From Desulfosoma sp. (GTDB lineage Bacteria; Desulfobacterota; Syntrophobacteria; Syntrophobacterales; DSM-9756), in assembly GCA_037481835.1 (NCBI GenBank), contig JBBFKW010000006.1, positions 128,001 to 192,000 on the forward strand: 64,000 nucleotides of DNA. The letters are read 5' to 3'. A model generated the notes under the pieces. The model ran no database searches, was not told where the DNA came from, and saw only the letters and a program-made list of their open reading frames with translations. Positions within the stretch are counted from its first letter, which is position 1. Each line of letters opens with the position of its first letter. Made by a program: the position numbers and the translations under genes. Shown one piece after another: positions 3,168 to 54,753 of the stretch.

Positions 3168-3200
3168 GGGTGTCTCCCTGCGCGCGTATCGCCCCCGAGA

Positions 3201-3841: not shown

Positions 3842-3891
3842 GATGTTCACCTCTTTCCCGTGATCGTTCGCACCTTTGGTGCGTTTCCATC

Positions 3892-5859: not shown

Positions 5860-6896
5860 CGCCCCGCCTCCCCGCCCGACGAGGCGTCGTCCCCGCCGGC
5901 CGGCTCATCGTCGTCGGTCCACACGGGTGTGCGCACCCCGAAGCCCGATCGGGCGTCTTCCAGCATGAGGGATCGGAACCGGCGGAAACACGGCCCGGGC
6001 AGCCCGTCCCCGATAAGCTTTCCGTCGTAACGGACCACGGCAAGGACCGGGTACGTGGTCCCGAAGATCATCATTTCAGCCGCGCTGTAGGCGTCTTCCG
6101 GCCGAAGGTCGGCTTCGGCCACGTCCGTGAGTTCTCCGGTCGTGACCAAAGGCCGGGCCAATTCCAGCATCCGGGTCACCGTCGTCCCTTGCAGGATGCG
6201 GTCGAACCGCGGCACGAGAAAACGGCCCTCCCGGGTGACGATCCCCACGTTTTCCGTGGCCCCTTCACCCAGGAAGCCGTCGTCGTCGATGGAGACGGTA
6301 AAATCAACGCCGGCATCCCGGGCTTCCTTGGTCATGAGGACGTTCGGGAGATAGTTGCAGCTCTTGACGTTGGCAAAATAGGATTTTTTTATGGGAATGC
6401 GGCTGCTTTTGAGCGTGACGCCTCGCGCCAGTTTGTCTTCGGGGACAGGCTTTAGGCGGGTGACCATGATATAGAGCTGGCTTGCCGGGCATTCGTACGG
6501 GTCGGTGCTGAATCCTCCCGGACCTCGCGACATGTAGATTCGAACCAGGCAATCCCGGGATCCCGACGCGCGCACGGTTTCCTTCACAAGGCCGATGAGC
6601 CGTCGCCGGTCCACGGGCCATGACAGCTGGGCGATGTCCGCCGAGCGGCTCAGACGATCCAAATGCCGATCGAGCAGATAGAGGTGTCCGTCCACGCACT
6701 GCAAGGCTTCGAAGACCCCGTCCCCGCGGTGGACCAAATGGTCGTCCAAGGGAATGAGCATGGCCCTAGGATCCGTGCAGATCCCCCCGTACCAGGACGA
6801 GTACATGGCCAGGTATTCGGCGTGATACGGTTCTTTTTTCTGGAGCAATCGATCCACGACGGCGTCGAAACTCAACACGGGAACCCCTCGACCCAT
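5856..6896 (-). CDS. PLP-dependent aminotransferase class IV (branched-chain/D-amino acid type)
   Basis: HRGDGVFE, HLDRL, KSCNYLPN, EGATENV, ILQGTT; start set at MGRGVP. Confidence 0.88.
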   Translation of the reverse strand: MGRGVPVLSFDAVVDRLLQKKEPYHAEYLAMYSSWYGGICTDPRAMLIPLDDHLVHRGDGVFEALQCVDGHLYLLDRHLDRLSRSADIAQLSWPVDRRRLIGLVKETVRASGSRDCLVRIYMSRGPGGFSTDPYECPASQLYIMVTRLKPVPEDKLARGVTLKSSRIPIKKSYFANVKSCNYLPNVLMTKEARDAGVDFTVSIDDDGFLGEGATENVGIVTREGRFLVPRFDRILQGTTVTRMLELARPLVTTGELTDVAEADLRPEDAYSAAEMMIFGTTYPVLAVVRYDGKLIGDGLPGPCFRRFRSLMLEDARSGFGVRTPVWTDDDEPAGGDDASSGGEAGR

Positions 6897-7075
6897 GCCC
6901 GAACCCTCCAAACCCTCTTTACGCCAAGCGCTGTCTTCTTCAAAAGCGCTTAACAATAGACAAGGCGCCTCGGATGTGCAAGGCTTTGTGCGATTCCCGA
7001 AGGGAACGGCTTCGAGTGTGGGCGTCAATCCATGAGCGTGAACCGGGCGGAAACTTCCGCACCTCTGCAGCATTC

Positions 7076-7756
7076 ATGATCATCCAAACCATCCTTTTCG
7101 ATTTCGACGGGACGCTGGCCGAATTGCGGATTGACTTTTCCGACATGAAGAGGCGGATTGCCGCCGTCGCGGCGGGATTTTTTGGGCGCGTGCCCGAGCC
7201 GTCGTCCCTTCCGGCTTTGGAATGGATCGACGCTCTGGCTCGTGAACTGAGCGGCACCGCGGACGGACGGGCTCGGGCGTTCCGATCCGAAGCCATGGCG
7301 AGCGTCCAAGCGCTGGAAATGGAGGCCGCCTCAAAGGGTAGCTTGTTTCCCTTCACGCGCCGGGTTCTGGAGGAACTGCGCGGACGGGGTGTGAAAATCG
7401 CCGTTGTCACGCGAAACTGCGAAGAAGCGGTCCGCGCGGTCTTTCCTGACATGGACGGATACGGTTTCAAGCTTTTTTCGCGAGACCAGGTGGCTCGGGT
7501 GAAACCCGACCCGGAACACCTCCGCACGGCCCTGCACGCTTTGAACGCCGGTTGCCGGGAAAGCCTCATGGTCGGGGATCATCCCTTGGACATCGAAACG
7601 GGAAAGCGCCTTGGAGTGAGAACGGCGGGTGTGGCCAGCGGCCGTGTTCCCTTGGAGGAACTGAAAGCCCACCGGCCCGATTGGACCGCCCAAGACTGCG
7701 CGGCGCTCCTGCGCCTCCTCGATGCGCAAAACCTCCTTCCCCCACGAAGGCTTTGA
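7076..7756 (+). CDS. HAD-superfamily hydrolase (phosphoglycolate phosphatase-like)
   Basis: ILFDFDGTL, VVTRN, KPDP, MVGDHPLD. Confidence 0.88.
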   Translation: MIIQTILFDFDGTLAELRIDFSDMKRRIAAVAAGFFGRVPEPSSLPALEWIDALARELSGTADGRARAFRSEAMASVQALEMEAASKGSLFPFTRRVLEELRGRGVKIAVVTRNCEEAVRAVFPDMDGYGFKLFSRDQVARVKPDPEHLRTALHALNAGCRESLMVGDHPLDIETGKRLGVRTAGVASGRVPLEELKAHRPDWTAQDCAALLRLLDAQNLLPPRRL

Positions 7757-7761
7757 CCGCG

Positions 7762-8622
7762 ATGCTTCAGCAGAAAGAAACGCTTTACATCCCCAAGATG
7801 TTCGTCGTCTTGAAAGGCTGGGCCGACGCCGGGGGCATGGCTCAGGCTGTTTTCGCGAGGATTCGGGAAAGACTCCCCTGCCGGCGTATCGCCCGGATGG
7901 ATATGGACGTCTCCGTCCACGGGGCGGAGCATCGCCCGCAGGTCGTGGTGCACCACGGGGTGCTCAAGGATTTCCGGTGGCCGGCCCTGGAATTTTACCT
8001 CCCGGAAGACCCGGCCCACCAAGACGTGGTCTTCGCCGTGGGCTGGGAACCGGCTTCCCATTGGCGGTCCTTTCTTTCGGACTTCGTGTCTCTCCTGGAA
8101 TCGTGGCGTTGCCGGCACCTCCTCCTCCTGGGAAGCCTCTACGACCAGATTTTTTACGACGAAATCCGCATCTCAGGGGTGGCCGTCGATGCCGCGGGCT
8201 ACAATCTGCTGCGCCGCTGGGGATGCCAGTTCGCCGAATACGCAGGACCGGGAGCCATCCATTCGGCGATCCTCAACGAAGTGCGCGGAAAACCCCTCAC
8301 GGCCGTGAACCTCTGGGCCCATGTGCCCTTCTACCTCAAGGACGCCCATGAACTCCTGGTCCATCGCGTCATGGAAATCGTCGGGGATTTCGCGGGCCTG
8401 TCCTGGAACCTGGACGATCTCCTGGCGGAATGGAAAGAACGGGAACGGGAAATCGAACAGATCCTTTCCCAGGACCCGTCGCTCAGGGAACAAATCCGAG
8501 CCCTCAAAAAGGAAGGAGCCCCCCCGGCGCCGAAGGACTCCAAACCCGCCCGCGGAGAAGTCATCGACCTCAGAAGGTTTCAGAAGAAAGCCAAAAATGA
8601 GGAGGCGGACGATCCGGCCTGA
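7762..8622 (+). CDS. PAC2-family (proteasome assembly chaperone-like) protein
   Basis: GWADAG, EP..HW, YAGP.AI, LWAHVPFY motifs. Confidence 0.75.
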   Translation: MLQQKETLYIPKMFVVLKGWADAGGMAQAVFARIRERLPCRRIARMDMDVSVHGAEHRPQVVVHHGVLKDFRWPALEFYLPEDPAHQDVVFAVGWEPASHWRSFLSDFVSLLESWRCRHLLLLGSLYDQIFYDEIRISGVAVDAAGYNLLRRWGCQFAEYAGPGAIHSAILNEVRGKPLTAVNLWAHVPFYLKDAHELLVHRVMEIVGDFAGLSWNLDDLLAEWKEREREIEQILSQDPSLREQIRALKKEGAPPAPKDSKPARGEVIDLRRFQKKAKNEEADDPA

Positions 8623-8818
8623 TCCCGCCGCCGAAAAGTGTTGATAATCCCGTGGGCTTGGGGGGCGAAGGGAATCCCAAGAACAAAAAATGGAATAGGC
8701 CCCCCGAAGAGGATCGCCCCATGGGCCGACCTTTCATGGGCGATGGGTCCGGAGGCCGCCGGGGCTGCGCGTCCGTAAGCCGGCAGTTCCGGAATCCGCT
8801 GGTTCCGGGGGCCAAGGG

Positions 8819-9634
8819 TTATGGGGCGAAGGACCAGCCGGCCAGGCGATACAGCGCGTGGAAATGGTGGACCGGCCCGTGGCCCCGCCCCAACGGCAAG
8901 GCTTCCCGGATGGCCCCGGTGATGTATTCCTTGGCCCGGGCGACGGCCTCGGGCACATCCAGGCCCTTGGCCAAACCGGCGGCGATGGCGGAGGCGAACG
9001 TGCACCCGGTGCCGTGGGTGTGGGGGGTGTGGAATCGTTCCGTGGGGAAACGCACGACGCGCTCCCCGTCGTCCATAAGATCCATGGGGTCCCCTTCCAG
9101 GTGCCCTCCTTTGAGGACGACGTACCCAGGGCCAAAGCTCTTAATCTTTCGAGCGGCTTTTTCCATGTCCTCGGGGTTTTTCACGGGAAAGCCCACGAGA
9201 ACTTCCGCTTCATGCAAATTGGGGGTCACCACCAAAGCCAAAGGCAGGAGTTCTTCCACCAGGGCGGATACGGCATCCGAGCGCAGCAAGGGATCGCCGC
9301 TCTTGGCCACCATGACGGGATCCACCACCAGGGTCCTCAGGCCCAACTCCCGCACATCTTGAGCCACACGCCGGATGATGGCCGAGGTCGCCAGCATCCC
9401 CGTCTTGACGGCGTCCACCCCGATGTCTTCCACCACGGCGCGGATTTGCGCGGAAACGAATTCCGGGTCCACTTCCAGCACGGCCCGCACCCCCACGGTG
9501 TTCTGCGCGGTCAAAGCCGTCAGCGCGCTCATGCCGAAAACGCCCAAAGCGGAAAAGGTCTTAAGATCGGCTTGAATGCCGGCCCCTCCACCGGAATCGG
9601 AGCCGGCGATGGTCAAGGCCCGAGGGATTTTCAT
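8819..9634 (-). CDS. thiD: Hydroxymethylpyrimidine/phosphomethylpyrimidine kinase
   Basis: TIAGSDSGGGAGIQADLKT, VVDPVM, TPNLHEA, HTHGTGCT. Confidence 0.95.
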   Translation of the reverse strand: MKIPRALTIAGSDSGGGAGIQADLKTFSALGVFGMSALTALTAQNTVGVRAVLEVDPEFVSAQIRAVVEDIGVDAVKTGMLATSAIIRRVAQDVRELGLRTLVVDPVMVAKSGDPLLRSDAVSALVEELLPLALVVTPNLHEAEVLVGFPVKNPEDMEKAARKIKSFGPGYVVLKGGHLEGDPMDLMDDGERVVRFPTERFHTPHTHGTGCTFASAIAAGLAKGLDVPEAVARAKEYITGAIREALPLGRGHGPVHHFHALYRLAGWSFAP

Positions 9635-10668
9635 GGCGCCTCCTTTCGAAAATGATCCCAGGCATGATGGGGCCCTCCGACGGCCCTTCCGTCCGGGCGG
9701 ACGCACCGGATGCCCTCTTCCCGAGGCACGATGCGCCCGATGACCCGGCACGGCGTTGCTCGAGCCTCCTCGAGAGCCTGGGTGATGTCCGGAAACCCGC
9801 CGGGATCGACCGCTGCAAGGAGTTCGTAATCTTCTCCCCCGTACAAGGCCCATTCCAGGGGATCCCGACGGACGGCCCTCGCCACGGCGTCGCAGGCCGG
9901 ATCCACCGGCACGGCGTCGGCGTACAGCACGGCCCCGACGCCGCTCGCCCGGCACAGGTGGCCGAGATCGCCCATGAGCCCGTCACTTAGATCGATCATG
10001 GCGTGGACCCGTCCCGAGGCGGCAAGGAGCCGCCCTTCGGCAAGGCGGGGTTCGGGCGCCCAATGCTTCTGGACGGCGGCCGCCCGGATCGGCTCGTCCA
10101 CCCCTGAAAGATCCCCCTTCAGACATTCCAGGCCCGCTCGGGATGCGCCCAGGGTGCCGGTGACGACGATGAGGTCCCCCGGGCGGGCACCACTTCGCAG
10201 GATCACTTTTTCGGGATCCACGTCCCCGAGGAGCGTCACATCGATGACGAGGCGTTCCGGATGCCGGGCCGTGTTGCCGCCCACCAACGCAGCCCCGAAA
10301 CGCTCCAAAGTGTCGCCGAAGCCCTGGTAGATTTCTTCCACCAGAGAGATCGGCGTGCTTTCGGGAACCATGAGCGACACCAAGGCCCACAAGGGGGTTC
10401 CGCCCATGGCCGCCATATCGCTCAGGTTTACCGCGGCGGCGCGCCGCCCCAGAAGATTCCCCGGAACGGCAGGCAGGCTGAAGTGGACGCCCTCAATCTG
10501 GCAGTCGCAGGTGGCCAGAAGAAGGCGGCCGGCTGAAGTGCGAAGGACGGCCACGTCGTCGCCCATCCCGACGACAACCGAAGGCGCACTGTGGGGAAAA
10601 AGACTCCTGATGCGGTCGATGAGGCCGAATTCGCCGAGTTCTTGGACGGTCGGGGACACGGGATTCAT
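9631..10668 (-). CDS. thiL: Thiamine-monophosphate kinase
   Basis: GEFGLI, GDDVAV, NLSDMAAMGG, DLSDGL, GGEDYEL; start uncertain (10668 or 10701). Confidence 0.92.
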   Translation of the reverse strand: MNPVSPTVQELGEFGLIDRIRSLFPHSAPSVVVGMGDDVAVLRTSAGRLLLATCDCQIEGVHFSLPAVPGNLLGRRAAAVNLSDMAAMGGTPLWALVSLMVPESTPISLVEEIYQGFGDTLERFGAALVGGNTARHPERLVIDVTLLGDVDPEKVILRSGARPGDLIVVTGTLGASRAGLECLKGDLSGVDEPIRAAAVQKHWAPEPRLAEGRLLAASGRVHAMIDLSDGLMGDLGHLCRASGVGAVLYADAVPVDPACDAVARAVRRDPLEWALYGGEDYELLAAVDPGGFPDITQALEEARATPCRVIGRIVPREEGIRCVRPDGRAVGGPHHAWDHFRKEAP

Positions 10669-30675: not shown

Positions 30676-31443
30676 ATGAAAGAGACAGCGCAGACGTCAC
30701 GACCAGAACGCATGGCGCGCTTCCTGGCGGCCCTTGCGCTCTGCACGGTGCTTCTCACCGGCTGCGGCACGAACCTTCTCAACTATTACTTCGACGACCT
30801 GTTCGATTCCGGGGATTCCATCGAGCGCACCCCGGAACAGCTGGCGTGGGAAGGCATGGAAGCCATGCGCGCCAAGAAGTACGGCAAGGCCTTGGAATCG
30901 TTCCAGAAGCTCAAAGAACGCTACCCCTACAGCAAGTACGCCATCCTGGCGGAACTCAAGATCGGGGACGCCCATTTTTACAAGAAAAACTACGAGGAAG
31001 CCGCTCTGGCCTACGAGGAATTCGCGCGGCTTCACCCCCGCAACGAAGTCATCCCGTACGTGCTGTACCAGTTGGGCATGAGCCAGTATCTCATCTCGCC
31101 GTCCGTGGACCGGGACCAGGACCAGACCCGCAAGGCCATGGAAACCTTCCGGCGGCTTATGGAGCTCTACCCCGGCACGGAATACGCCTCCAAGGCCAAA
31201 GTCCAGATCCTGGAATGCGAAAAGCGCATTGCGGCCCATGAATTCCGCATCGCCCGCATGCATTACCGCATGGGCAAGTACCGGGCCGCGGAGCTGCGCC
31301 TGACGCGGCTTCAGGAAGACTACCCGCAGGCGGTGGAAAAACTGGGCTTTCAGAAGGACATCGAAAAGATGCTCGCCGACTGTCGTGAATGCCTCAACCG
31401 TCAAGGGGACGGCAAGAGCATTTGGACTCGGCTGGGATTCTAA
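30676..31443 (+). CDS. bamD: Outer-membrane assembly lipoprotein BamD
   Basis: Lipobox LTGC, TPR helices, DRDQ motif, AAHE..IA..Y. Confidence 0.88.
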   Translation: MKETAQTSRPERMARFLAALALCTVLLTGCGTNLLNYYFDDLFDSGDSIERTPEQLAWEGMEAMRAKKYGKALESFQKLKERYPYSKYAILAELKIGDAHFYKKNYEEAALAYEEFARLHPRNEVIPYVLYQLGMSQYLISPSVDRDQDQTRKAMETFRRLMELYPGTEYASKAKVQILECEKRIAAHEFRIARMHYRMGKYRAAELRLTRLQEDYPQAVEKLGFQKDIEKMLADCRECLNRQGDGKSIWTRLGF

Positions 31444-42979: not shown

Positions 42980-43008
42980 CAGGAAGGCCGTTAGTGAGTG
43001 GGCTCTTT

Positions 43009-43062
43009 TGCAAATATATGCAAAACATTGCATGCCTCATATGCAAAATATTGCACATTGCA
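43009..43062. promoter_or_regulatory. Cluster of TGCA-N6-TGCA palindromes, candidate activator binding sites
   Basis: TGCA at 43009, 43019, 43029, 43042, 43052 and 43059 in AT-rich context. Confidence 0.45.
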
Positions 43063-43398
43063 TGGGTGTTCATAAGGATTGGGATGGCAGTTTAGCCCTA
43101 AAGCCCGCACGCATTCAGGCGATGATCAAATGAGAAAATATGGTCGTTGAGAGGTCTTGCGTGGATTTTACCAAACCAAGACTTGATCGAATACCGCCCT
43201 CTCGTCCTCCGGTACACTTCTTGCATGAAAACTTCGTCAATTTCAGCTCGAGGCCGCGCAGTTTTGGCGAGCTCGAGCGGCGTGCTTCGAAGAAATGCCC
43301 ATGCCCCAGGGCGATGGGATTTCTTGCGGCGGCGACAGGGACAAGAGAGATCACAAGGCTCAAAGGTTCTTCGGCGGTGCGGAAAAGATTGATGAAAC

Positions 43399-44595
43399 AT
43401 GGAGCAACTCATGAAAAGGCTCTCGGAGCGCATTGAACGTCGTCGGGACCGCCGGCTCCCGGTTTCCTTAGGCGCTGTGCTCAGGGCGCCCGATGGGCGA
43501 TGGGCCCGCCATGCTCATGTAAAAGATCTCCACCGCTTCGGCGCCCGCGCTTGCGTTGAGGACATGGACATTCTGGCCGAAGACGACCCCGTTCTTGTCG
43601 AGTTTGACCTGGATTCCGAAAAGGGAGAAGCCCTCGGACGTGTGCGGTGGACACTTAGGGGCGAGGGCGACAGCCTCCACTGCGGCGTTACGTTCGACGA
43701 GCCTCTTTCAATTAAACTCCCATTGGACACCGTCCAGGCGGCTTTCGCGCGCCTCCAGGAAGAGGCGCCTGAGCATAAGCTAAATATGAACTACTCTTTG
43801 CTGGAAAAAATCACCCTGGCCATGCATGGAGAGACGTGGGCTGGAGGTCTTCTCAACTTGTTTGCAATTCCTGCGCAGCACGCCTTGAATGCCTTAGGCA
43901 CACGCTTAGAATTGGATTCTCTGCGTCTTCAGAGGGCGTTATCGGAGACACATGCCCTTTCCGCCAAAGCCTCTTTGCACCCACTTTTATTAATTTTAAC
44001 GGACGTTTTTCAAGACCTTCAAACCATATCGAAAAAAATCAAAGAATTCATCAGGCATCTCAACTCACTCCATGGATCCTTGCTCCTTGAGCCGGATAAT
44101 TACGTCCGCCAAGTAGATCCGGCGGAGCTGATGCGGCAATCAGTAACATTCATGGAGGCGCTTTGCGGTTTTCTCGGGGGCAAAATGGCATCGCTGCGTT
44201 TTAGAACAGCGGAGGGTGCACTCCCCTTATTGGGGGTCCGCCCGCTGGATTTACGGCGGAGCCTTGATGCGTGCCTTCTAGGGATGATGGAATCAGCCCT
44301 GTGCAGCCAGGGCACCACCATAACTGTTGGACCTATAGAAACGGAAAGCTGGGTCGGGGTACAATTCGGCCATGACGGCTTTCGCATGATGCAAGCGCAA
44401 GCTTTACGTCTCCGCCTTGACGATGCCGGGTTCATCGGTGAAACGAGCAGCCGGGACGAACGGACTGCCCTCAGATTTTACCACGCCATTTTGCCCTTAC
44501 GGGAATATGGCGTGTTTCTCAATATTTATCCCGAATCCGGACGCAACCGAGTACAGCTGCGGTTACCCTTAACTACGCGAGCCAACAGCGCATAA
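43399..44595 (+). CDS. PilZ-domain protein with degenerate histidine-kinase-like C-terminus
   Basis: RRRDRR (RxxxR), DLHRFG, VRW...CGVTF; C-terminal half has helical then HATPase-like layout without canonical boxes (inference). Confidence 0.65.
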   Translation: MEQLMKRLSERIERRRDRRLPVSLGAVLRAPDGRWARHAHVKDLHRFGARACVEDMDILAEDDPVLVEFDLDSEKGEALGRVRWTLRGEGDSLHCGVTFDEPLSIKLPLDTVQAAFARLQEEAPEHKLNMNYSLLEKITLAMHGETWAGGLLNLFAIPAQHALNALGTRLELDSLRLQRALSETHALSAKASLHPLLLILTDVFQDLQTISKKIKEFIRHLNSLHGSLLLEPDNYVRQVDPAELMRQSVTFMEALCGFLGGKMASLRFRTAEGALPLLGVRPLDLRRSLDACLLGMMESALCSQGTTITVGPIETESWVGVQFGHDGFRMMQAQALRLRLDDAGFIGETSSRDERTALRFYHAILPLREYGVFLNIYPESGRNRVQLRLPLTTRANSA

Positions 44596-44883
44596 ATCCA
44601 GCACTCAGGGCGAGAAGCTCTCCAGGATGCCCTGAGCGCCGAACTCTCCCGCGACAATTCGAGTCACGCATGCTGGTGATTTTCGGAAAATTTCAGGGTA
44701 ACAATTGAATATTGGGAAAGTCTGGTTAACTTTGGGGATGTCATTTCACCTTTTCCTACCCCTCATTTCGTTCTTTTTTCCCTTTTCCAGACAGTCTACG
44801 TGCACCATGGAGTCAGGATGTCGCCAGGAGAGGTGCAGGGACAAGACTCTACAAGCCTGGAGGGGCAAAAGGAAAAGTGAACG

Positions 44884-45258
44884 ATGGAAACAACAAGGGA
44901 AAGGCGCCTTCATGAGCGGTTTCGCCTCGCTGGCGATGTTTTCCTCGCTTTCCGACCCAGCTTCGAGAGGGTGGGAAGAATCCTTGACATCAGCGCCGGT
45001 GGGATTGCCGTGGAATACGCTTCAGACCTTGGCCCCCTCGAGCGGGGTGAAGTGCTGGTCGACATTTTTGTGAAGCATAAGAACACACGAATCCGCAGCC
45101 TTCCATGCCATGTTGTCTATGATGTCGAGGAGCCATCGGGTTTCGAATGGGGGGGAGTTGCACTGCGGCGTTGCGGCTTGAAGTTCTTGGCCCTGGCAGA
45201 GGAACACTTTTCGGAACTCAGAGGATTCTTCAGCGACTGCATAATGGCACCAGCATAA
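44884..45258 (+). CDS. Single-domain PilZ protein
   Basis: ERRLHERF (RxxxR), DISAGG, CGLKF. Confidence 0.85.
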   Translation: METTRERRLHERFRLAGDVFLAFRPSFERVGRILDISAGGIAVEYASDLGPLERGEVLVDIFVKHKNTRIRSLPCHVVYDVEEPSGFEWGGVALRRCGLKFLALAEEHFSELRGFFSDCIMAPA

Positions 45259-45278
45259 GGCCTATCTTCTTTGGTTTC

Positions 45279-46196
45279 TTACTCCTTGAGGCCTTCTCGA
45301 CAGGTTGCCAAGTAGCTTCGAAGGTCGGTCTTGGTGTCGGCCAAGTTCAACTTCCTCCGGATGTTTCTCCGGTGCGTTTTGACGGTGCTTAGCGAAACGT
45401 GAAGCTGTCGGGCTATTTCTTCCGTAGTCAGGCCACTCTTGATAAGCGTTGCAACCCGTAACTCTGTGAAGGACAACGTGGAGACGATTCTGCCGCTCAA
45501 AGCATCCCCGGAGGTCAACTCGTCGATTATTTGTTGCATGGCCGCCTCCAGTTCGGCGGCTTTATCCGCGGTTCGGGCATTAAGGGCCAGTCGTCCCACT
45601 AAAGGCATAATAACCCCGCGTAGTTGAATAGCGATGCGCCTCTCTGTTTCTTCACGTTCCCTGGCGATGTTCTGAGCGAGAACGGCCATGGCTTTGTTGG
45701 TTTTGAGCAGCTGCTCGTTCAGAAATTCCAGTCGGCGGTTTTGCTCCGTAAGGAGCCTTTCGTTTTCGCGAAGCTCTTCCAGCAAAGCCCTGAGTCGGTC
45801 TTCTTTCCGTTTGGCGTCCAAGGCCCTCTCAATGGCATGCTTGAGAATCGAGTAATCAAAAGGCTTCTCAATAAAGTCGAAGGCCCCAAGCTTGAGAGCC
45901 TGTATCGCTGTATTCTTGTCGGCGTATCCGGTGACCATGATGACCTTTACGGAGGGGAATCGCGTTTGAATCTGAGGCAGGAAGTCCAAACCGTTGCCGT
46001 CCTGGAAATGGACGTCGAGTAAAATGACATCATACTCGGGACGACTCTCTGAAACGCTGAGGACGTGGGAAGGATGCGGACAGGTGTCGGCCCTCATCTG
46101 CCACGATTCAAGGAGGCCCTGGAGGGTTTCACAGATCATGGGCTCGTCGTCGACGACGAGAACCTTGGGCAATCCATCGTTCTCGGTGTATTTCAT
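45279..46196 (-). CDS. Response regulator: receiver + coiled coil + LuxR-type HTH
   Basis: VVDDE, ILLDV, VTG, KPF; LSFTE..VA...GLTTEEIA...STVKTHRRNIRRKL. Confidence 0.9.
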   Translation of the reverse strand: MKYTENDGLPKVLVVDDEPMICETLQGLLESWQMRADTCPHPSHVLSVSESRPEYDVILLDVHFQDGNGLDFLPQIQTRFPSVKVIMVTGYADKNTAIQALKLGAFDFIEKPFDYSILKHAIERALDAKRKEDRLRALLEELRENERLLTEQNRRLEFLNEQLLKTNKAMAVLAQNIAREREETERRIAIQLRGVIMPLVGRLALNARTADKAAELEAAMQQIIDELTSGDALSGRIVSTLSFTELRVATLIKSGLTTEEIARQLHVSLSTVKTHRRNIRRKLNLADTKTDLRSYLATCREGLKE

Positions 46197-46325
46197 GGTT
46201 GTGCCCTTCTTTCAGGGGTCACTCACGACAAATATGGTTCGACCAAACAGTGGAGACCCTGCCGCACACGAGTCTTAAAGCTCATCGCATTGACACCCAT
46301 TAATAGGGCAAAACGCCGGTAGGTT

Positions 46326-47315
46326 TCAAGGAATATCCGGATGGGGGGCTTCCAGTGACCGTTTTGAACGTCTGCGGCCGCTCAGGGAATTTTTCAGACT
46401 ATAAATTCTTCCACGGATCCCCAGCTTTCTTCGGATGTTTTTCCTATGCGCTTGCAAGGTCGTGACACTTACCCCCAAGTGTCGAGCCAGAATCTCACTG
46501 GGCACCCCCTGTTGGACCAGTATGGCGACTCTAAGTTCGGTGGGGCTTAACCTGGCGATCATCTCCGCATGAATGCTGGTCGGGTCCGTGAGTCCTTGCA
46601 GGGCACACAGGATCATGCTTTTCAATTCCGCGCCCGCAATTGCCGTTTGAGGGTCTTCGGTCATTTTCATGATGATGGGCAGGAGCCTGGCCGAAACTTT
46701 TTTTCTGACGGATTCCGCAGCCTCCTGCCGCTCCATTTCCATTCGTTCCATGAGAATGGAAAGGGCTTTGCGCGCCTCAGAAAGTCGCTGCAGAAGGACT
46801 TGAAGGCCCCGTTTTTGCCCCATCAGCCGATTTCTGCTTTCTTCCAATCGGGTCAGCTCTTCTTGGAAGCGTTGCGTCATCTCCAGATCACGGAGCACCA
46901 TGAGGAAGCGATGTTCAATTACGGTGATGTCATAAGGCTTTTCCACCCAGGCATGAACACCGGGCGGAAGCGTCGGAACGTCTCCCCCGACTCCCACCGG
47001 TCTGCTTATGATGATTTGTGGAAAGGCGTCCCCGTCATGTTGCTTTGGAAGGCGTTTCTTCATGTCGGAATGGGCGAGGAGCTCCGCCGGCACCAAGACA
47101 ATGTGGTAAGGCTTAAGCCCTTGGCGAGCTGAGATGTCCCTCGGATGTTGGACCCAATCGGCCTGCAATCCATTGGCCTTGGCGCAGCGCAAAACCTCCA
47201 CGCAGGAATCCCAATCGCTGTCAACAATGAGGACGCGGTATATGCGGCATTCGTCTGTCTGCGTCTTCTGCCGTCTTGTTCTCACACGGCAACCTCTACT
47301 TCCGGTCTCGAGCAA
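46326..47315 (-). CDS. Pseudo-receiver + coiled coil + LuxR-type HTH regulator
   Basis: VLIVDSD and KPY present but phosphoacceptor Asp absent (IVLVP); LSPTELRVA...HRKNIRRKL; start uncertain. Confidence 0.78.
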   Translation of the reverse strand: MLETGSRGCRVRTRRQKTQTDECRIYRVLIVDSDWDSCVEVLRCAKANGLQADWVQHPRDISARQGLKPYHIVLVPAELLAHSDMKKRLPKQHDGDAFPQIIISRPVGVGGDVPTLPPGVHAWVEKPYDITVIEHRFLMVLRDLEMTQRFQEELTRLEESRNRLMGQKRGLQVLLQRLSEARKALSILMERMEMERQEAAESVRKKVSARLLPIIMKMTEDPQTAIAGAELKSMILCALQGLTDPTSIHAEMIARLSPTELRVAILVQQGVPSEILARHLGVSVTTLQAHRKNIRRKLGIRGRIYSLKNSLSGRRRSKRSLEAPHPDIP

Positions 47316-48355
47316 CGGGAAGTGCCATCCGCCGGCATAATCCAGAGCCCTGGTGCCTTAATAGGCCTTTTCAGCGCGCCGCCGATTTCATGACATTCCG
47401 AAAGATATTCATGCCAGCGCACGACCTGGCTTTTTTTCGATCATTCGGTAAGTGCGGGCTCCACACTATCTTTTTCTTTACAGCGGAAATTTCGAGAATG
47501 AGATTTTTCGGGATCAAGCTTTCGTCCCTCCTATACGCTATGAAATTTTTCTCATTCCTTGTAGCCCTTTAGGTGACATTAATTTTTCCAAGATTTCGCG
47601 GCTTCCGGTGCTCCTGTGGCACAATCCCTTCCCCGCCCAAGAGCCATCACACCGGCAATGCCTGCTTGCGCCACGCTACGGGAATCCACCAGGCACAAAG
47701 GGAAAGCCGTCATCATGCAAGCCCTTCGGCCAATTCAGCTAAGTCACCCCTCAATGTCATCAATCGGCTATTCATATGCGCTCTTGAGGAATTTTGCAGC
47801 TAAGATCCTGGGGCATCCTAGATGCCATCGGGCTGGCAAACACCGAGATCGACAGTCAAGGCTTTTGGATCTGGATCTGTCTCCAAAAACAAGACGTTTC
47901 GCAAAGCCGGGCCCAAGCCTTTAACATATTGTTCTCAAAAACGATTTGCATTGAATGGGTAAGATTTACCGCATTGCCTACCACGGCATTTCGATCTGTT
48001 TCTCCTGGGGACAACTGAGCGATGGAAAAACCGTATCGAAAGAGGTCCCAGAGCCCGATGGGAAATCTCATGTCCTCCTGTTCATGGATTCACCGACAGG
48101 CCAATTCGATCCCGCAGAGGTTCCTGTAACCGAGTTGGCGAAGCTCTGCCGCAACATGCCCCCCAGACGGTTCGGCAAGCCGGCCACGCTCATTCGACCG
48201 CTTGGATTTCGGGATCGCCTGAGATGCATGAAAACCGCTCCCTTACTCAAACAAACATCAGGCCGGACATGAGCGTGCTGTGGGGCCTCACTCTGAGAAA
48301 CTCTTAGATACCTTCAGGCGCCCAGAATTTCACATCACGAAAGGAGGCGAGACAT

Positions 48356-48523
48356 ATGGAACGGACAATTAAGAAAGCCCCTTATTCATCCCCGAAGCTC
48401 ACAACATTTGGAAACCTCAAAACCATTACCTTGTTTGGAGGAGGCAGGAGGCATTTTCGAGACCGCTTCAAGCCGCATGATGAAAAACCCGGGGCGAACA
48501 GTCCCCAGCCTTTTACTTCCTAA
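48356..48523 (+). CDS. Lasso-type RiPP precursor peptide (55 aa; absent from ORF track)
   Basis: Manual translation MERTIKKAPYSSPKLTTFGNLKTITLFGGGRRHFRDRFKPHDEKPGANSPQPFTS; AAGGAGG RBS at 48341; YxxPxL..G....T leader; C-terminal Ser; upstream of kinase, RRE and B2 genes. Confidence 0.88.
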   Translation: MERTIKKAPYSSPKLTTFGNLKTITLFGGGRRHFRDRFKPHDEKPGANSPQPFTS

Positions 48524-48669
48524 GCGTTTTGAATCGCCAGGCGATTGGCCAACACTTTTAGGAATCTTACCTCCTGATGCTTGGAAGGAAGCTGCCCGAT
48601 CTTCCCGCGCCGCGAGCATTCCGCTCAGGAGCATGACCCTGCTCCAAGAGGCGACCGGAGCGACAGCTC

Positions 48670-49689
48670 ATGCACACAGAACATAATTATAAGACAATGG
48701 CATATGAAGCTTTCGGTTTAACTATAGGCTCTGACATGGTTATTCCGGAACTAGTGAAATCTGAAAGCAGCCGTTGGGATATTCATGTTCGCAGAGGGCC
48801 TGTTTTTTACAGACTCAAAGGGATTGAAGAAGACGGGTACAAGTGTGCCATGACGGCCAATGAAGCCTATTTGGAATGGAAGATTGTGGGACGCTTCGCC
48901 ATTCTAAACGGCAAACACATCACCGTGGACCCGGCCCCGGGTGTGGACGAATCGGTCATTCGGGTTCCCTTGCTTGGCATGGTCATGGCCGTTGCCCTCA
49001 TGCAGCGCGGGCTGCTGGTCCTTCACGGGAGCGTGCTGGGGATGGGAAAAACGGCCGTCGCTTTTCTCGGAGACAAGGGTTTTGGGAAATCCACGTTGGC
49101 GGCGGCCCTCTATGCTCGGGGCCATCGGCTGATTTCCGATGACATCCTGGCCATCACGGCTTCATCGGCCAAACGCCCCAGGGTTTGGCCGGCCTTTCCT
49201 CAATTCAAGCTGTGGCCCGAAGTGATCCCCTCGATTTTCGGCTTGAAGGCAGAAGAACTCCCCAGGGTCCATCCGGAAGCGGAAAAGCGGATCCTAACGG
49301 TAGCGGAACGCTTTGAGAGACAAGTCCTGCCGCTCAGCCGCATCTACATCCTGGACGCCGGGCCGTGTGCTCGAATAGAATCTCTCCCGCCCCAGGAAGC
49401 CCTCATGGAGATTATCAAGAATTCCTACTTGGCCCGGTTTTCGGACCAGGCGGACCGAAGTGCAGAGGCTCTGCAACTGCGCGGCTGTTCGAATCTTCTC
49501 AAGTTCGCATCCGTCTTCCGATTGATTCACTGTTTCAGCCTTTCCAAGCTGGAAGAACTGGTGGAAATGGTGGAGGAGCACGCGGGAACAGCAACTCATT
49601 CAACCCGCGGCTTGCAACGGAGGGTCGTGGAGGAACCAGTCAGCGTGCCGGAAGCGGCGTCGTCTTCCGCCGGGAGCGCACAGCCTTGA
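48670..49689 (+). CDS. HPr-kinase-like protein (lasso precursor kinase type)
   Basis: LHGS, GDKGFGKST (Walker A), LISDD; start 48670 or 48697. Confidence 0.85.
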   Translation: MHTEHNYKTMAYEAFGLTIGSDMVIPELVKSESSRWDIHVRRGPVFYRLKGIEEDGYKCAMTANEAYLEWKIVGRFAILNGKHITVDPAPGVDESVIRVPLLGMVMAVALMQRGLLVLHGSVLGMGKTAVAFLGDKGFGKSTLAAALYARGHRLISDDILAITASSAKRPRVWPAFPQFKLWPEVIPSIFGLKAEELPRVHPEAEKRILTVAERFERQVLPLSRIYILDAGPCARIESLPPQEALMEIIKNSYLARFSDQADRSAEALQLRGCSNLLKFASVFRLIHCFSLSKLEELVEMVEEHAGTATHSTRGLQRRVVEEPVSVPEAASSSAGSAQP

Positions 49690-51521
49690 TGAAGAAACCG
49701 TCAAACCGGACCGCTCTTTTTCATCTTCCGGAAACCCTCCGTCTCGTATGGGGGGCATCCCCGAAGTGCACAATTCTATGGGGGACTTTGCTCGCCGTTC
49801 AAGGACTCCTTCCGGTCGTTCCCCTTTATCTGACCCGAAGACTGGTTGACGGATTGGTCGAAGCGGTCAACGCAAGCGGGGCCTGGCCTGTGATGAAGCC
49901 CTTGGCCGTGATGATCGGGCTCCTGGCGTTGACTATGCTGCTGATCGAACTGGTCCAATCGGTCTCGGAATCGGTGCGCGTGGCGCAATCCGAGCTGGTA
50001 AGAGATCACATTGCCGGCCTCATCCACGAAAAGTCGGCCGGCGTTGATCTGGCCTTTTATGAATCTTCTGATTACTACGACCATCTGCATCGGGCCCGTG
50101 ACGATGCCGACGGCCGATGTCTTGCCTTGATGGAAAGCGTCGGGAGTCTGGCACAAAACGGGATCACACTCGTGGCTATGGCTGCGGTCCTATTGCCTTA
50201 CGGGTATTGGGTGCCGTTGGTTTTGCTCGCCGGGACGCTGCCTGCTTTTTTGGTCATCTTCTACTTCGACAGGGCCTACCACGACTGGTGGAAGCGCAGC
50301 ACTCCTGATCGGCGTTGGGCGGATTACTATGATTTTATGCTCACCCACGCCACTACGGCCCCGGAAATTCGTTTGTTCGGCTTAGGAGACCCTTTCAGGC
50401 AATCCTATCAGAGACTTCGACGGAGCCTCCGTGCCGAACATATCAAGATCGTTCGCCATCGCAGCGCGGGTCGCTTCGCCGCAGGGGCCTTCGCTCTGTT
50501 GTCCACCGGCGCGGTGATGGGAATCATGGTCCTTAGGGTCACGAAGGGGCTTGCCACATTCGGCGACCTGGCCCTCTTTTACCAGGCCTTCACGCGCGGG
50601 CAGAATCTGATGCGTTCCCTGCTGAGCAATCTCGGCCGGATTTATACAAACGGCTTGTTTCTGAACAACCTTTTTGAGTTCTTCAATTTAAAGCCTCAAA
50701 TCACCGACAGTTCCAAGCCGCTTGGGGCTCCCCGAAAACTGAAGCGCGGCATCCGGTTCCATCAGGTCACTTTCCGCTATCCCGGAAGCGACAGGAAGGC
50801 TCTGGACGGTTTCGACCTGTTCATCCCCGCCGGACAGACCGTGGCCATCGTCGGCGCCAACGGCGCGGGGAAAAGCACATTGGTGCGCCTTCTTTGCCGG
50901 TTTTACGACCCCGAGTCCGGAAGCATCGAATGGGATGGTGTGGATGTAAGGCAAATGCCCTTGCAGGACCTTCGCCGAATGGTGACGGTGCTGTTTCAAA
51001 TACCGGTCCCCTACCATGCCACGGCTTCCAGGAATATCGCGTTGGGGGACATCGCCGCCGAAGGTGATCCGGCAGATGTGGAGATGGCGGCGCGATTTGC
51101 CGGAGCCCATGAAATCGTATCCCGCCTACCTCGCGGCTATCAGACCCTCTTGGGCAAATGGTTTGCCGACGGCACGGATCTTAGCGCCGGCGAATGGCAA
51201 CGCATAGCCCTAGCCCGGGCATTTTACCGGAAAGCTCAGATCGTCGTCCTCGACGAGCCCACGAGCTTCATGGATTCATGGGCCGAAAAAGAATGGTACG
51301 ACCGTTTTCAAACACTTGTACGAGGGCGTACGGCGGTTCTGATCACCCATCGATTCACTCTGGCCAGACGGGCTGACATCATCCATGTCATGAGCGACGG
51401 CCGGATCGTCGAATCCGGGACGCACGACCAGCTTTTGGCATGCAAAGGATTATACGCTGAAGCCTGGGGGGCCCAATGGGGCCATGACAAGCTTACCTCC
51501 TGCGCATTAGCCGAGGCGTGA
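49689..51521 (+). CDS. ABC exporter (fused permease/ATPase, no C39 peptidase domain)
   Basis: TM region, GANGAGKST, LSAGEWQRIALARA, LDEPTS, ITHR. Confidence 0.92.
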   Translation: MKKPSNRTALFHLPETLRLVWGASPKCTILWGTLLAVQGLLPVVPLYLTRRLVDGLVEAVNASGAWPVMKPLAVMIGLLALTMLLIELVQSVSESVRVAQSELVRDHIAGLIHEKSAGVDLAFYESSDYYDHLHRARDDADGRCLALMESVGSLAQNGITLVAMAAVLLPYGYWVPLVLLAGTLPAFLVIFYFDRAYHDWWKRSTPDRRWADYYDFMLTHATTAPEIRLFGLGDPFRQSYQRLRRSLRAEHIKIVRHRSAGRFAAGAFALLSTGAVMGIMVLRVTKGLATFGDLALFYQAFTRGQNLMRSLLSNLGRIYTNGLFLNNLFEFFNLKPQITDSSKPLGAPRKLKRGIRFHQVTFRYPGSDRKALDGFDLFIPAGQTVAIVGANGAGKSTLVRLLCRFYDPESGSIEWDGVDVRQMPLQDLRRMVTVLFQIPVPYHATASRNIALGDIAAEGDPADVEMAARFAGAHEIVSRLPRGYQTLLGKWFADGTDLSAGEWQRIALARAFYRKAQIVVLDEPTSFMDSWAEKEWYDRFQTLVRGRTAVLITHRFTLARRADIIHVMSDGRIVESGTHDQLLACKGLYAEAWGAQWGHDKLTSCALAEA

Positions 51522-52795
51522 CAATGAACCGAGACGACGACAGAGAAATTTTCTCCTCCGTGAGGCCTGAAATGGAGTTGCTCGTCCGATGCGTCGGCCT
51601 CCATGCCCACGAGCGCTGCTCGCAACGCATCGAGGAACTCCTCAAGGCAGATCTGGATTTTGATTATCTGGTCCAGCTGGCCGTGCAGCATCGTGTTATT
51701 CCCTTGTTAGAACGCGGTCTCGCAAACGGCCACGCCCGCAACCTGCCTGCGTGGTTCCTCCAGGAACTCAGGGAACTGCGTTGGTACAACACGCTGCACT
51801 CCTTGGCCATGCTCGAGGAACTGCTTGCGGTTTTGCGGATCTTTCGCTCCCATCATATCCGCGCCATCTCCTACAAGGGCCCTCTTCTTGCCGAATGCGC
51901 CTATGACGATCCCGCCCTGAGGCAGTTTTTCGACTTGGATCTCATTGTCCCGCTTCAAGACGTCCCGTCTGCAGTGGCTCTTCTTGAATCGCGGGGCTAC
52001 TATGTGAAACGCGAATTAACGTCCCCTATCAGGACGCGCTCTCTGAAGAGCGACCTGCATCCCCATCATGAGTACGCGCTGAGCAACCCCACCACCGGCG
52101 TGACCGTAGAGTTGCACTGCCTTTCCGGCCCACGCGCTTACGCCTATCCGCTGAACCCCCAAACCGTCTGGAAACAGGTCGAAACCGTGCGGATTGGAGA
52201 AGACACCCTGGACACTCTGCGAGCCGAAGCGATGGCATTGATTTTGTGCATTCACGGGACGAAACACCGCTGGGCCTGCCTGCAGTGGCTTTGTGATGTC
52301 GCGGCCCTGATCCACTCTCACCCCGATTTGGACTGGGACTGGATTCTCAAGACAGCTTTCCTTTCCGGAAACGAGCGAATTCTTCTCCACAGCCTGCTCT
52401 TGGCCCGGCAGTTGCTAGGAGTTCGGCTTCCGCCGGAGATTAATGCTCACATCCATGCGGATCCCCATGTACGTAGACTGTCGGTCCAGGCTCGAAACCA
52501 CCTCTTTCAGACCGGTGACGTTTCGTCGGAATTGGTGGCCTCGGCGCTTCGTTATCACTTCGAAACTCTCACCTCAGGAAAACACAAGACCGCTTTTGTC
52601 CTCCACAAAATCCTCTATTCCTTCAATCAATCTTTAACGTTGCTGATGCCCACCGAAAAAGAAAGAAAATTAGCAGCGCTGCCGGAATTTCTGACCTTTC
52701 TTTACTTGCCCCTGCGTCTCGCTCGGCTAGCCGTCAAGTATTCCTCGATGGCCCTTCTTCGTCGATACCCATCGAACACCGTCGAGGGCTTCTAA
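51518..52795 (+). CDS. Nucleotidyltransferase (NTP_transf_5-like)
   Basis: YKGP.L...Y....LRQFFDLDLIV, VELH, HGTKH...WLCD. Confidence 0.85.
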   Translation: MTMNRDDDREIFSSVRPEMELLVRCVGLHAHERCSQRIEELLKADLDFDYLVQLAVQHRVIPLLERGLANGHARNLPAWFLQELRELRWYNTLHSLAMLEELLAVLRIFRSHHIRAISYKGPLLAECAYDDPALRQFFDLDLIVPLQDVPSAVALLESRGYYVKRELTSPIRTRSLKSDLHPHHEYALSNPTTGVTVELHCLSGPRAYAYPLNPQTVWKQVETVRIGEDTLDTLRAEAMALILCIHGTKHRWACLQWLCDVAALIHSHPDLDWDWILKTAFLSGNERILLHSLLLARQLLGVRLPPEINAHIHADPHVRRLSVQARNHLFQTGDVSSELVASALRYHFETLTSGKHKTAFVLHKILYSFNQSLTLLMPTEKERKLAALPEFLTFLYLPLRLARLAVKYSSMALLRRYPSNTVEGF

Positions 52796-52824
52796 CCCGA
52801 GTAAATATCTCGCGCGAGGTTGCC

Positions 52825-53130
52825 ATGAGCAAGGAAAAGACCATCGGACCGGAAACGATTCTTCGAGCTTCTCAGAATCAGGTTTCCACGGATCTGCAAG
52901 GGGAAACGGTTATCTTGGATCTCAAGTCGGGGGTCTACTACGGGCTGGATGCCATCGGGACTGAGGTCTGGCGCATGATCCAGAAACCTCGGAGCGTAAA
53001 GAGCATCCTAGAAGCGCTCCTGAACAAGTACGAGGTCGCTCCCGATCGTTGTGAAATGGATCTAGTTTCCCTTCTTGAAGATTTGCACGCCAACAACCTG
53101 GTTGTGATTCATGATCAAGAAACTGCGTGA
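52825..53130 (+). CDS. PqqD-family RiPP recognition element (lasso B1)
   Basis: ETVILDL.SGVYYGLD.IG..VW, Y.V....C..DL..LL..L. Confidence 0.92.
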   Translation: MSKEKTIGPETILRASQNQVSTDLQGETVILDLKSGVYYGLDAIGTEVWRMIQKPRSVKSILEALLNKYEVAPDRCEMDLVSLLEDLHANNLVVIHDQETA

Positions 53131-53602
53131 TTTTCACGAACTGCCGCCTCGGGCGAAGAAATTCTGGCTGGCCGCCGCGTGGCTTGCTCTAGCGATGCGA
53201 TTGCTCTTAACGATTGCCCCTTTCCCTGTACTTCGGGCTTTGGTCGCAAAGCTCCACAAGCTCCACGATGTGTCTCACAGGGTTGATGCGGATACACTCA
53301 ATGAGATCGCCTGGGCCGTGAGGTCCGCGGCCCGATGGGTTCCCATTCGCGGGACGTGCCTCATTCAGGCTCTTGTCGGGCAGATTCTCTGCGCGTGCTG
53401 TGGGCAGCCTGTCACTTTGTGCATCGGCGTCACAAAGAGCAAGCAGGGGACTTTCGAGGCCCACGCCTGGCTTGTGACAAGCGAAGGAAAAACACTTATC
53501 GGGCAAGTGCCGAATCTGAAGTATTTCGTCCCCTTTGAGGGGGTGTGGGCGGAAAACGGCGCAAGGAGCCCCGCGAGACCGCCAACGTCTCTCGCGCATT
53601 GA
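53111..53602 (+). CDS. Lasso peptide leader peptidase (B2, transglutaminase-like)
   Basis: TCLIQAL, IGV, AHAWL catalytic Cys/His motifs; overlaps the B1 gene. Confidence 0.92.
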   Translation: MIKKLRDFHELPPRAKKFWLAAAWLALAMRLLLTIAPFPVLRALVAKLHKLHDVSHRVDADTLNEIAWAVRSAARWVPIRGTCLIQALVGQILCACCGQPVTLCIGVTKSKQGTFEAHAWLVTSEGKTLIGQVPNLKYFVPFEGVWAENGARSPARPPTSLAH

Positions 53603-53630
53603 TGTTCGCCGCACCAAGGAGATTTATGTT

Positions 53631-54653
53631 ATGAAGACATCTAGATTTCGCCAGGCACAAGCGTTCAGTTTTTTACTGTTCCTCTCGTTTTTCCTCTTGA
53701 CGCTTGCCGCGTGTGTGGGCACGGGTCCGGCACCGACGACGAGGCTTGAGGCGCTCGTCGCTCAGGATTCCGCGGACCGCAAACAAACCGAAGATCTCAA
53801 TGCGCAAATTTTCGCAGCCGCCAACACGGACGCTGAGCCAGCAAATTACGTTGTGGCCGAAGGAGACCTTCTTCAAGTGACAGTCTTCGGTGAAGACGAT
53901 CTCAGCAGCACAGTGCGGGTCAGCGACGACGGCACCATCACATTGCCGCTCATCGGCCTCATTGCCGCAAAGGGTCACTCCGTCCATGAATTGGAAAAGC
54001 GCATCGAACGGGCGTACGGAGAAAAATACCTTCAAGATCCCCATGTGAGCATCTTCGTCAAAGAGCAACAGGGGGGGAAGATCACGCTCCTGGGAGCCGT
54101 GATGAAGCCAGGCACCTACGATTACTTTTCGCGCCGGAGGTTGTTGTCCGTCTTGGCCATGGCCGGGGGACTGGCGAACAATGCGGGAAGCACGGTTCAG
54201 ATCCGCCGGAAGACGGACGACGCGGCAAGACCCACCACCTACATTATCGACCTCGCCGATATGCTCAGAACTGGAGATGAGCAGCTCAATTTGGAAATCA
54301 ATGCCAACGATGTGATCTTCGTGCCGGAAGCGGGAACGTTCTACGTCGACGGGGCCGTCAGAAAGCCCGGGGTATATCCCCTTAAGGCGGCAACAACCGT
54401 TCGGGAAGCCATCGCCATGGCCGGCGGTACCACATGGTATTCCAACGACGTGATCAAGCTTCTGAGGCGCTCCGGTGAAGGCAAAACGGACATTGTGGAC
54501 ATGAAGGCGAACAGCCTGGAAACCGCCAATGTGGCGCTTCGGGATCGGGATATCGTTTTTGTCGAGACGAATCAGGTCAAGCAAGTGATTTATGGCCTGC
54601 GTCTCTCCATCGTCGGCACGGGGGTCTCTTTTACCCCTGTGGAACCGAGATAG
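53631..54653 (+). CDS. Polysaccharide export lipoprotein (Wza-like)
   Basis: Lipobox LAAC, GDLLQVTVF, DGTITLPLIG, SLBB repeats (GAV.KPG.Y). Confidence 0.9.
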   Translation: MKTSRFRQAQAFSFLLFLSFFLLTLAACVGTGPAPTTRLEALVAQDSADRKQTEDLNAQIFAAANTDAEPANYVVAEGDLLQVTVFGEDDLSSTVRVSDDGTITLPLIGLIAAKGHSVHELEKRIERAYGEKYLQDPHVSIFVKEQQGGKITLLGAVMKPGTYDYFSRRRLLSVLAMAGGLANNAGSTVQIRRKTDDAARPTTYIIDLADMLRTGDEQLNLEINANDVIFVPEAGTFYVDGAVRKPGVYPLKAATTVREAIAMAGGTTWYSNDVIKLLRRSGEGKTDIVDMKANSLETANVALRDRDIVFVETNQVKQVIYGLRLSIVGTGVSFTPVEPR

Positions 54654-54753
54654 CTCTCTCAACGGATGACGATATGGGCCTTGGGGAATCCCGCTCGCCA
54701 AGGGGTTGAATCCGCACTCCGGCACAGGATCCCCTCACTGGAAAGGTGACGAC

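Follow-up and report, generated by a model that had tools for sequence, protein, structure and literature searches.

Background

[quoted passage not shown] According to the same account, the clusters are often located inside capsular polysaccharide loci, the product was demonstrated to be linear and polyphosphorylated on Ser3, and LPPs and paeninodins are stated to be restricted to Bacillota (PMC13381572). The paeninodin kinase is reported to phosphorylate the linear precursor, on its C-terminal Ser, but not the threaded lasso, and the pseudomycoidin nucleotidyltransferase to add hexoses to the phosphate on the C-terminal Ser (PMC8498205). In the Bsf system of Bradymonas sediminis, B1 is described as assisting both the kinase and B2, and B1 with B2 freed the linear core in vitro; precursors of phosphorylated lasso peptides are given there as carrying YxxPxL at -17 to -12 and Thr or Ile at -2 (Duan et al. 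2023, PMC10368454).

Here we describe a related locus in the window, which is the whole 64,000-nucleotide stretch of Desulfosoma sp. DNA that was analysed. Its best explanation, which we hold to be probable, is a lasso-derived, B2-dependent pathway without a cyclase that would make a linear cationic peptide, phosphorylated (perhaps also glycosylated) on its C-terminal Ser, from genes that head an exopolysaccharide (EPS) operon.

Precursor gene

The precursor was encoded by a 55-codon ORF on the + strand, which was read from an ATG at 48356 to a TAA at 48521-48523 and specified the 55-aa product MERTIKKAPYSSPKLTTFGNLKTITLFGGGRRHFRDRFKPHDEKPGANSPQPFTS. A preliminary description of this DNA had reported a strong ribosome-binding site and a lasso-type leader, and both were borne out: the Shine-Dalgarno sequence AAAGGAGG was found 8 nt before the ATG, and the leader contained YxxPxL together with Thr at -2, fitting the pattern YxxPxLx3Gx5Tx exactly (Tyr10, Pro13, Leu15, Gly19 and Thr25). 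The long, basic core described there was also read in the sequence, being 29 aa in length, Arg/His/Pro-bearing (4 Arg, 2 Lys, 2 His and 4 Pro; net +3 as K/R minus D/E) and terminated by Ser.

As the ORF is short and is overlapped by other ORFs on both strands at 48356-48523, it could be a chance open frame and no gene, but the strength of the ribosome-binding site and the rarity of the leader pattern make this extremely improbable. That exact family pattern had just five matches when the whole genome was translated in six frames (7.26 million residues), and here it was located approximately 170-340 nt upstream of the sole HprK-like kinase of the genome, in a cluster that also contains its sole B1 and B2. 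Residues 7-32 matched NCBIfam NF033528 (lasso_cyano) with 25.3 bits (E 1.1e-5), under the cut-off of 33, and a full-length homologue with 80% identity was identified (see below). The match of the leader to the pattern is therefore beyond chance. The same pattern occurred 78 times near related kinases, mostly just upstream of the kinase, and gave 70 distinct cores within 3.5 kb of it in 53 of 80 loci, which further argues against a chance frame. An identical 55-aa protein was present in the protein collection. On sequence grounds, we consider the ORF confirmed as a real lasso-style precursor peptide gene.

Gene cluster and surrounding region

Downstream of the precursor gene (A), the genes for a kinase, an MsbA-like exporter, a PF14907 nucleotidyltransferase, B1 (RRE) and B2 (protease) followed in this order, overlapping or nearly touching one another (Table 1). 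The kinase scored 32.2 bits on PF07475, just missing the gathering score of 33.3, and weakly on TIGR04352; it kept the family-invariant residues G115, G117, K118, S119, T120 and D136. The exporter matched PF00005, just missed the cut-off of 28 on PF00664 (27.2 bits) and was TIGR02203-like. Alignment of B2 showed that Cys83 and His118 were conserved. The kinase, B1 and B2 were each present as a single copy in the genome. A search of the genome for the archaeal-type signal peptidase model TIGR02228 gave 0 matches, which leaves B2 as the only leader-peptidase candidate found.

The exopolysaccharide genes (53631..64000) were encoded on the same strand as the RiPP genes and their content places the RiPP cluster within a polysaccharide biosynthesis locus. 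Just upstream of this RiPP/EPS string, the region 43399-47315 encoded two PilZ-domain proteins and two LuxR-type regulators, one of them with a receiver domain, which suggests control of the locus linked to c-di-GMP. The segment of about 1 kb 5' of the precursor (47316-48355), between the divergent LuxR-type regulator and the precursor, contained no protein-family match, Rfam match or convincing promoter. An Rfam search of 47000-49000 also returned nothing, the fold of the intergenic region between A and the kinase had a z of -0.86, and a promoter and terminator scan gave no signals above the shuffle level. Contigs of four DNA runs carrying the region showed 0 differences where they covered it and no variants or joints bearing on the cluster; metagenome runs from hot springs and sediment yielded contigs with the region unchanged.

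Table 1. Positions of the precursor, the genes of the cluster and its surroundings, and related features outside the window (window numbering unless a contig or locus is named)
Feature	Position	Strand	Details
Shine-Dalgarno AAAGGAGG	48340..48347	+	8 nt 5' of ATG; read from sequence
Leader peptide, residues 1-26	48356..48433	+	YSSPKL RRE-binding motif (Tyr at -17), Thr25 at -2
Core peptide, residues 27-55, and stop codon	48434..48523	+	29 aa, net +3, C-terminal Ser55; Asp36 = core position 10
HprK-like peptide kinase	48670..49689	+	probable start Met10 at 48697; P-loop GxGKST intact
MsbA-like ABC exporter, 610 aa	49689..51521	+	start overlaps kinase stop by 1 nt
PF14907 (NTP_transf_5) nucleotidyltransferase	51518..52795	+	175 bits; start overlaps exporter stop by 4 nt
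B1, PqqD-type RiPP recognition element	52825..53130	+	PF05402 66.7 bits; NF033536 75.1 bits vs cut-off 80
B2, transglutaminase-like leader peptidase	53111..53602	+	NF033537 85.7 bits vs cut-off 33
Wza-like exporter	from 53631	+	28 nt after B2, own AGGAG
Wzc-like tyrosine kinase	54706-57084	+	
Priming sugar transferase	57155-58573	+	
Two GT2 glycosyltransferases	58557-60511	+	
GT1/GT4 glycosyltransferase	about 61450-62568	+	
AsnB-type amidotransferase	62570 to past window end	+	
Orphan lasso-type precursor, 50 aa	G000:C1 about 31163-31315 (L126:9164-9316)	+	RBS AAAGGAGG, as window precursor
Clusters of L077 and L080	about 1700-6600 and 4500-9700		

Search for a lasso cyclase

Neither the cluster nor the genome, the completeness of which is 99.37%, yielded a lasso cyclase. 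A PF00733 search of the genome returned three AsnB paralogues and one weak match, which was the GMP synthase. All three paralogues passed TIGR01536 (asparagine synthase) and scored 150-203 bits on the lasso-cyclase model NF033535, the cut-off of which is 525; the best score was 203 bits on the whole protein and 173.6 in the genome scan. The kinase-adjacent cyclases of loci L024 and L041, included as positive controls, scored 962 and 852 bits on this model. With a custom HMM built from 58 kinase-adjacent cyclases (training members 452-1036 bits), the paralogues scored 188-237 bits, comparable to the housekeeping AsnB of other loci. Cys2 of AsnB is the glutaminase catalytic Cys; in the 58 cyclases this column contained Ser in 56, Thr in one and a gap in one, and Cys was present in 3/3 of the genome paralogues. 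A read-through search of the six frames of 43001-54000 revealed no cyclase remnant, the best E-value being 0.95. As no cyclase was found in the cluster, in this remnant scan or in the genome, and as the AsnB paralogues keep Cys2, the macrolactam cyclase appears to have been lost.

The product could still be a true lasso, with a ring between Phe1 and Asp10, or between Gly1 and Asp9 after a shifted cut, if a cyclase encoded elsewhere closed it, for example the AsnB-type amidotransferase 9 kb downstream or one of the other two paralogues. The pathway has kept B1 and B2, and this amidotransferase places an Asn-synthase-fold gene in the same + strand gene string, but the glutaminase Cys2 of all three paralogues, where nearly all kinase-linked cyclases have Ser, and their passing of the asparagine-synthase model far under the cyclase cut-off make such a role doubtful. 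Additionally, in the 64 of 80 related loci that have a cyclase, it is located close to the kinase. Together with the evidence from the homologue, the second precursor and the kinase family given below, this leads us to regard a true lasso as quite unlikely.

Cleavage register and acceptor residue

The two registers given in the preliminary description were correct, as Thr at -2 results in Phe1/Asp10 and a cut one residue later results in Gly1/Asp9. Two independent landmarks, Tyr10 at -17 and Thr25 at -2, agreed on a cut between Leu26 and Phe27. Since each of them puts +1 at Phe27, a shifted cleavage register, which had been one of three explanations offered for the unusual core, is not indicated. 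The core had also been called non-canonical on account of both Phe1 and Asp10. The second part stands, as Asp or Glu at core positions 7-9 was absent from the window core in the Thr(-2) register and Asp36, at core position 10, was its first acidic residue and the sole candidate acceptor near the ring positions. The first part does not hold for this kinase-linked family, in which two of the 58 cores from loci with a cyclase begin with Phe.

A precursor search of representative proteins revealed P0002 as the only real match; the other five matches were long unrelated proteins or a 133-aa protein matching the leader alone. P0002 is also 55 aa in length, shared 44/55 residues (80%) with the window precursor (P0001) and was encoded on the same contig as a kinase with 88-89% identity to the window kinase. 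The first 21 core residues of the two precursors were identical at 20 positions, the single difference being Asp36, which is Asn in P0002; the C-terminal PFTS was kept. The Asn at the acceptor position counts against a true lasso. It also weakens another explanation offered earlier, an unusual ring size, for which no ring-closing enzyme was found, even though a 10-membered ring is possible in principle. A non-lassoed product, the third, is the option favoured here, both by the failure to find a lasso cyclase in the cluster or genome and by this Asn.

A second, orphan precursor

The genome encoded a second lasso-type precursor (Table 1), with a terminator-like hairpin and T-run after its stop codon. 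No biosynthetic genes were located near it. Its 27-aa core has Ala1/Asp9 in the Thr(-2) register, a net charge of +4 and a C-terminal Ser. The two precursors shared 43% identity over 47 residues, and in the BLASTP alignment Asp9 of the orphan aligned with Asp36 of the window precursor across a one-residue gap. The protein collection contained no homologue of the orphan, nor the orphan itself, and its region was not found in a search of 20 relatives.

The predicted layout of the orphan is lasso-compatible and is a caveat to the linear reading of the pathway; its Ala1/Asp9 core, and the alignment of that Asp9 with Asp36, support a true lasso. We read the orphan as a probable trace of lasso ancestry, with the acceptor kept in the orphan, shifted by one in the window peptide and lost in P0002. 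At the same time, it leaves room for the rival idea of some unrecognised cyclase.

Cyclase presence and core type in related kinase loci

The window kinase had 261 homologues. From species-representative genomes, 80 related kinase loci with 33-43% identity were collected; the locus scan used a 14-sequence kinase alignment, a 41-kinase alignment being too diverse. A metagenome scan added 13 kinase loci with at most 45% identity. The closest kinases numbered just three, at 63-89% identity; none with at least 45% identity was found in 60 order-level relatives, which gave weak matches only, and the best kinase in 400 sampled genomes of the phylum had 40% identity.

A cyclase ORF was present in 64/80 loci, 58 of these ORFs being full-length and within 6 kb of the kinase; those that were not full-length were cut off or split, and were counted inside the fetched locus. 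The usual order in these loci was B1-B2-C-A-K-D-N. The remaining 16 loci had no cyclase ORF, of which eight were on short or edge-limited contigs and are uninformative. The other eight (L040, L057, L058, L077, L080, L081, L082 and L086) had several kb on both sides or comprised the whole contig. The genomes of L077, L080, L081, L082, L086 and L057, which are MAGs of unstated completeness, had no NF033535 match over the cut-off (best 346 bits); those of L040 and L058 encoded cyclases elsewhere.

The cores of the two groups differed. In the 58 distinct cores of cyclase-bearing loci, Asp or Glu was located at positions 7-9 in 46, at position 10 only in six and at none of positions 7-10 in six; 31/58 ended in Ser, the mean net charge was -2.1 and one of the 58 had a charge of +2 or more. 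The cyclase-less loci gave 12 distinct cores, 9/12 of which had no Asp or Glu at 7-10, with a mean charge of +2.6 and a charge of +2 or more in 5/12. L017, which is a contig of 1.5 kb, L057 and L058 supplied the other three, with Asp or Glu at 7-9; the genome of L058 encodes a cyclase at another site. The window core, with its charge of +3, Asp at 10 and Ser end, sits with the cores of the cyclase-less loci, and its charge is atypical for a cyclase-linked core, which argues against a true lasso.

The six cyclase-linked cores with Asp at 10 and none at 7-9 were from L025, L034, L041, L046 and L091 (two copies). They shared a conserved ..G.SDGFLF.G... and ended in Ser in the Thr(-2) register, and are candidates for a 10-membered ring or for a cut one residue later. 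Such a 10-residue spacing thus occurs beside real cyclases, which is a point in favour of a true lasso. Among the cyanobacterial loci (L016-L047), Gln was the first residue of 11/58 cyclase-linked cores in the Thr(-2) register (QGG...D at 8 or 9). Gln is an uncommon first residue in a lasso ring.

Two of the cyclase-less loci, L077 and L080 from Gemmatimonadaceae, encoded the same six parts as the window in the order B1-B2-A-K-N-D, with no cyclase in the locus (Table 1). Their precursors were nearly identical between the two genomes, with a 28-aa, Gly/Arg-rich core that contained no Asp or Glu and ended in Ser. L040 (8970-17532) had the order B1-A-K-D-N without B2 or a cyclase, two lasso cyclases being encoded elsewhere in the genome; its 25-aa core had a net charge of +13, and genes for a LodA-like lysine oxidase and a tryptophan-halogenase-like flavoprotein followed. 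In L082 (7800-10900; Phycisphaerales), a PqqD/short B2 pair and the kinase flanked a tandem array of four short precursors whose cores carried the motif GSG(I/L)P; no cyclase was present in this locus, and its genome gave no NF033535 match over the cut-off. Of the kinase loci of at least 12 kb (L015-L094), 17/55 had a homologue of Wza, Wzc or the priming sugar transferase no more than 10 kb from the kinase (phmmer, E below 1e-5), a count in which the Wzc matches may partly reflect the P-loop domain.

In a quick kinase tree the window clade formed a long branch within an unresolved polytomy, not resolved with other cyclase-less lineages. The cyclase-less label was not significantly clustered on this tree (68/500 shuffles were as low), and the tree shows neither a single nor a repeated loss of the cyclase.

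The rarity of the window clade, with three kinases at 63-89% identity and no others of at least 45% in the order-level relatives or sampled phylum genomes, would fit a phosphorylated lasso cluster whose cyclase was lost recently and which persists as a decaying or silent remnant, its precursor no longer yielding a useful product. The acceptor Asp also seems to drift, being at position 10 here and Asn in P0002. A remnant is nevertheless unlikely, as none of the six genes is disrupted, their catalytic residues are conserved and their starts translationally coupled, and a cyclase pseudogene was absent from 43001-54000. The precursor has kept its strong ribosome-binding site and is 80% identical to that of a relative whose kinase is 88-89% identical, with 20 of the first 21 core residues unchanged. 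A second precursor has been retained with its own ribosome-binding site and terminator-like hairpin, and cyclase-less clusters of the same parts recur, with conserved precursors, in Gemmatimonadaceae.

Proposed pathway and its meaning

The linear phosphopeptide pathway that we favour starts from the gene content, the intact catalytic motifs, the absence of the cyclase, the non-conservation of Asp36 and the link across the family between cyclase loss and basic cores without an acceptor. Its chemical steps, phosphorylation site and biological role are predicted from sequence. The RRE of B1 would bind the leader at YSSPKL, and the HprK-like kinase would phosphorylate the core, perhaps more than once; the conserved C-terminal Ser55 is the most likely site. 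One or more sugars may then be put on the phosphate by the PF14907 nucleotidyltransferase. B2, with B1, would cut after Leu26, with Thr at -2, to give a 29-residue peptide beginning at Phe27, which the MsbA-like ABC pump would export. The product would remain a linear peptide, cationic but for its anionic phospho(glyco) C-terminus, and its genes would stand first in an exopolysaccharide operon. Ser55 as the phosphorylation site is a guess; the kinase target in LPP and Bsf is Ser3 of the core, which is absent here.

If this pathway is true, the LPP idea, which its 2026 paper confines to Bacillota, extends to another phylum and to another leader peptidase, the lasso B2. It would also be a case of a lasso pathway turned into a linear-peptide pathway, with the traces left in the precursor as a shifted or lost acceptor Asp and a cationic core. 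The link to polysaccharide loci recurs, in Bacillota in the LPP paper and as an operon-like string here, which allows a role in the biofilm matrix to be tested directly. The locus is also a caution to genome miners that a canonical lasso leader with B1 and B2 need not mean a lasso product.

A much bolder extension, which we put forward as speculative and unlikely to hold, is that phosphorylated lasso pathways shed the cyclase repeatedly (in Thermodesulfobacteriota, Gemmatimonadota, Planctomycetota and Chloroflexota). The linear, cationic phospho(glyco)peptides cut by B2 would then form a distinct RiPP class, as yet undescribed. The peptide here would be co-transcribed with the exopolysaccharide machinery and work within it, for instance by adding a charged component to the matrix or by carrying a phospho-linked glycan, and would not be an antibiotic-like lasso.

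Comparison with described systems

Kinase-linked lasso loci among L015-L094 (Cyanobacteriota, Chloroflexota, Acidobacteriota and others, with NF033528 precursors) share with the window homologous kinases (33-45% identity), the leader pattern and usually PF14907 and an ABC exporter, but mostly carry a cyclase and have acidic or neutral cores with Asp or Glu at 7-9. The paeninodin and pseudomycoidin clusters of Bacillota, as described, have A, B1, B2, kinase, nucleotidyltransferase and ABC exporter in common with the window (PMC8498205), as well as a C-terminal Ser in the core and Thr at -2, and their kinase is reported to act on the linear precursor. The window cluster differs from them in having no C cyclase and no Asp or Glu at 7-9, in its cationic core and in its phylum. 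Bsf shares YxxPxL at -17 to -12 and the presence of B1 and B2, whereas it is described with a cyclase, a Gly1-Asp8 ring, Ile at -2 and phosphorylation on Ser3 (PMC10368454).

No published cyclase-less cluster of the B2 type was found beyond the LPP paper, the supplementary data of which may list B2-type or non-Bacillota clusters. From the account in that paper, the window and LPP clusters share an HprK-like kinase, a discrete RRE, an NTP transferase, an MsbA-like exporter and the lack of a macrolactam cyclase, and also YxxP in the leader and a setting in a polysaccharide locus; the window product is likewise expected to be linear and phosphorylated. [quoted passage not shown] The window leader is a lasso leader with Thr at -2, and only YxxP is common to it and the LPP motif YxxPxVLxHQxIxFETxxS. 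The core has Gly at position 3 and no Ser3, the residue reported as phosphorylated in LPP, so that the C-terminal Ser is the likely target here. The hosts also differ, being a Desulfosoma-like member of the Thermodesulfobacteriota here and Bacillota for LPP. Two housekeeping proteins of the genome grouped at 90% identity with proteins carrying the names Desulfosoma or Desulfacinum, one of them Thermomicrobium sp.; Desulfosoma belongs to the Thermodesulfobacteriota. In its predicted working, the window pathway is like that of LPP; it departs from LPP in two features, the peptidase type and the precursor motif, and from lasso pathways in another two, the cyclase and the acceptor at positions 7-9.
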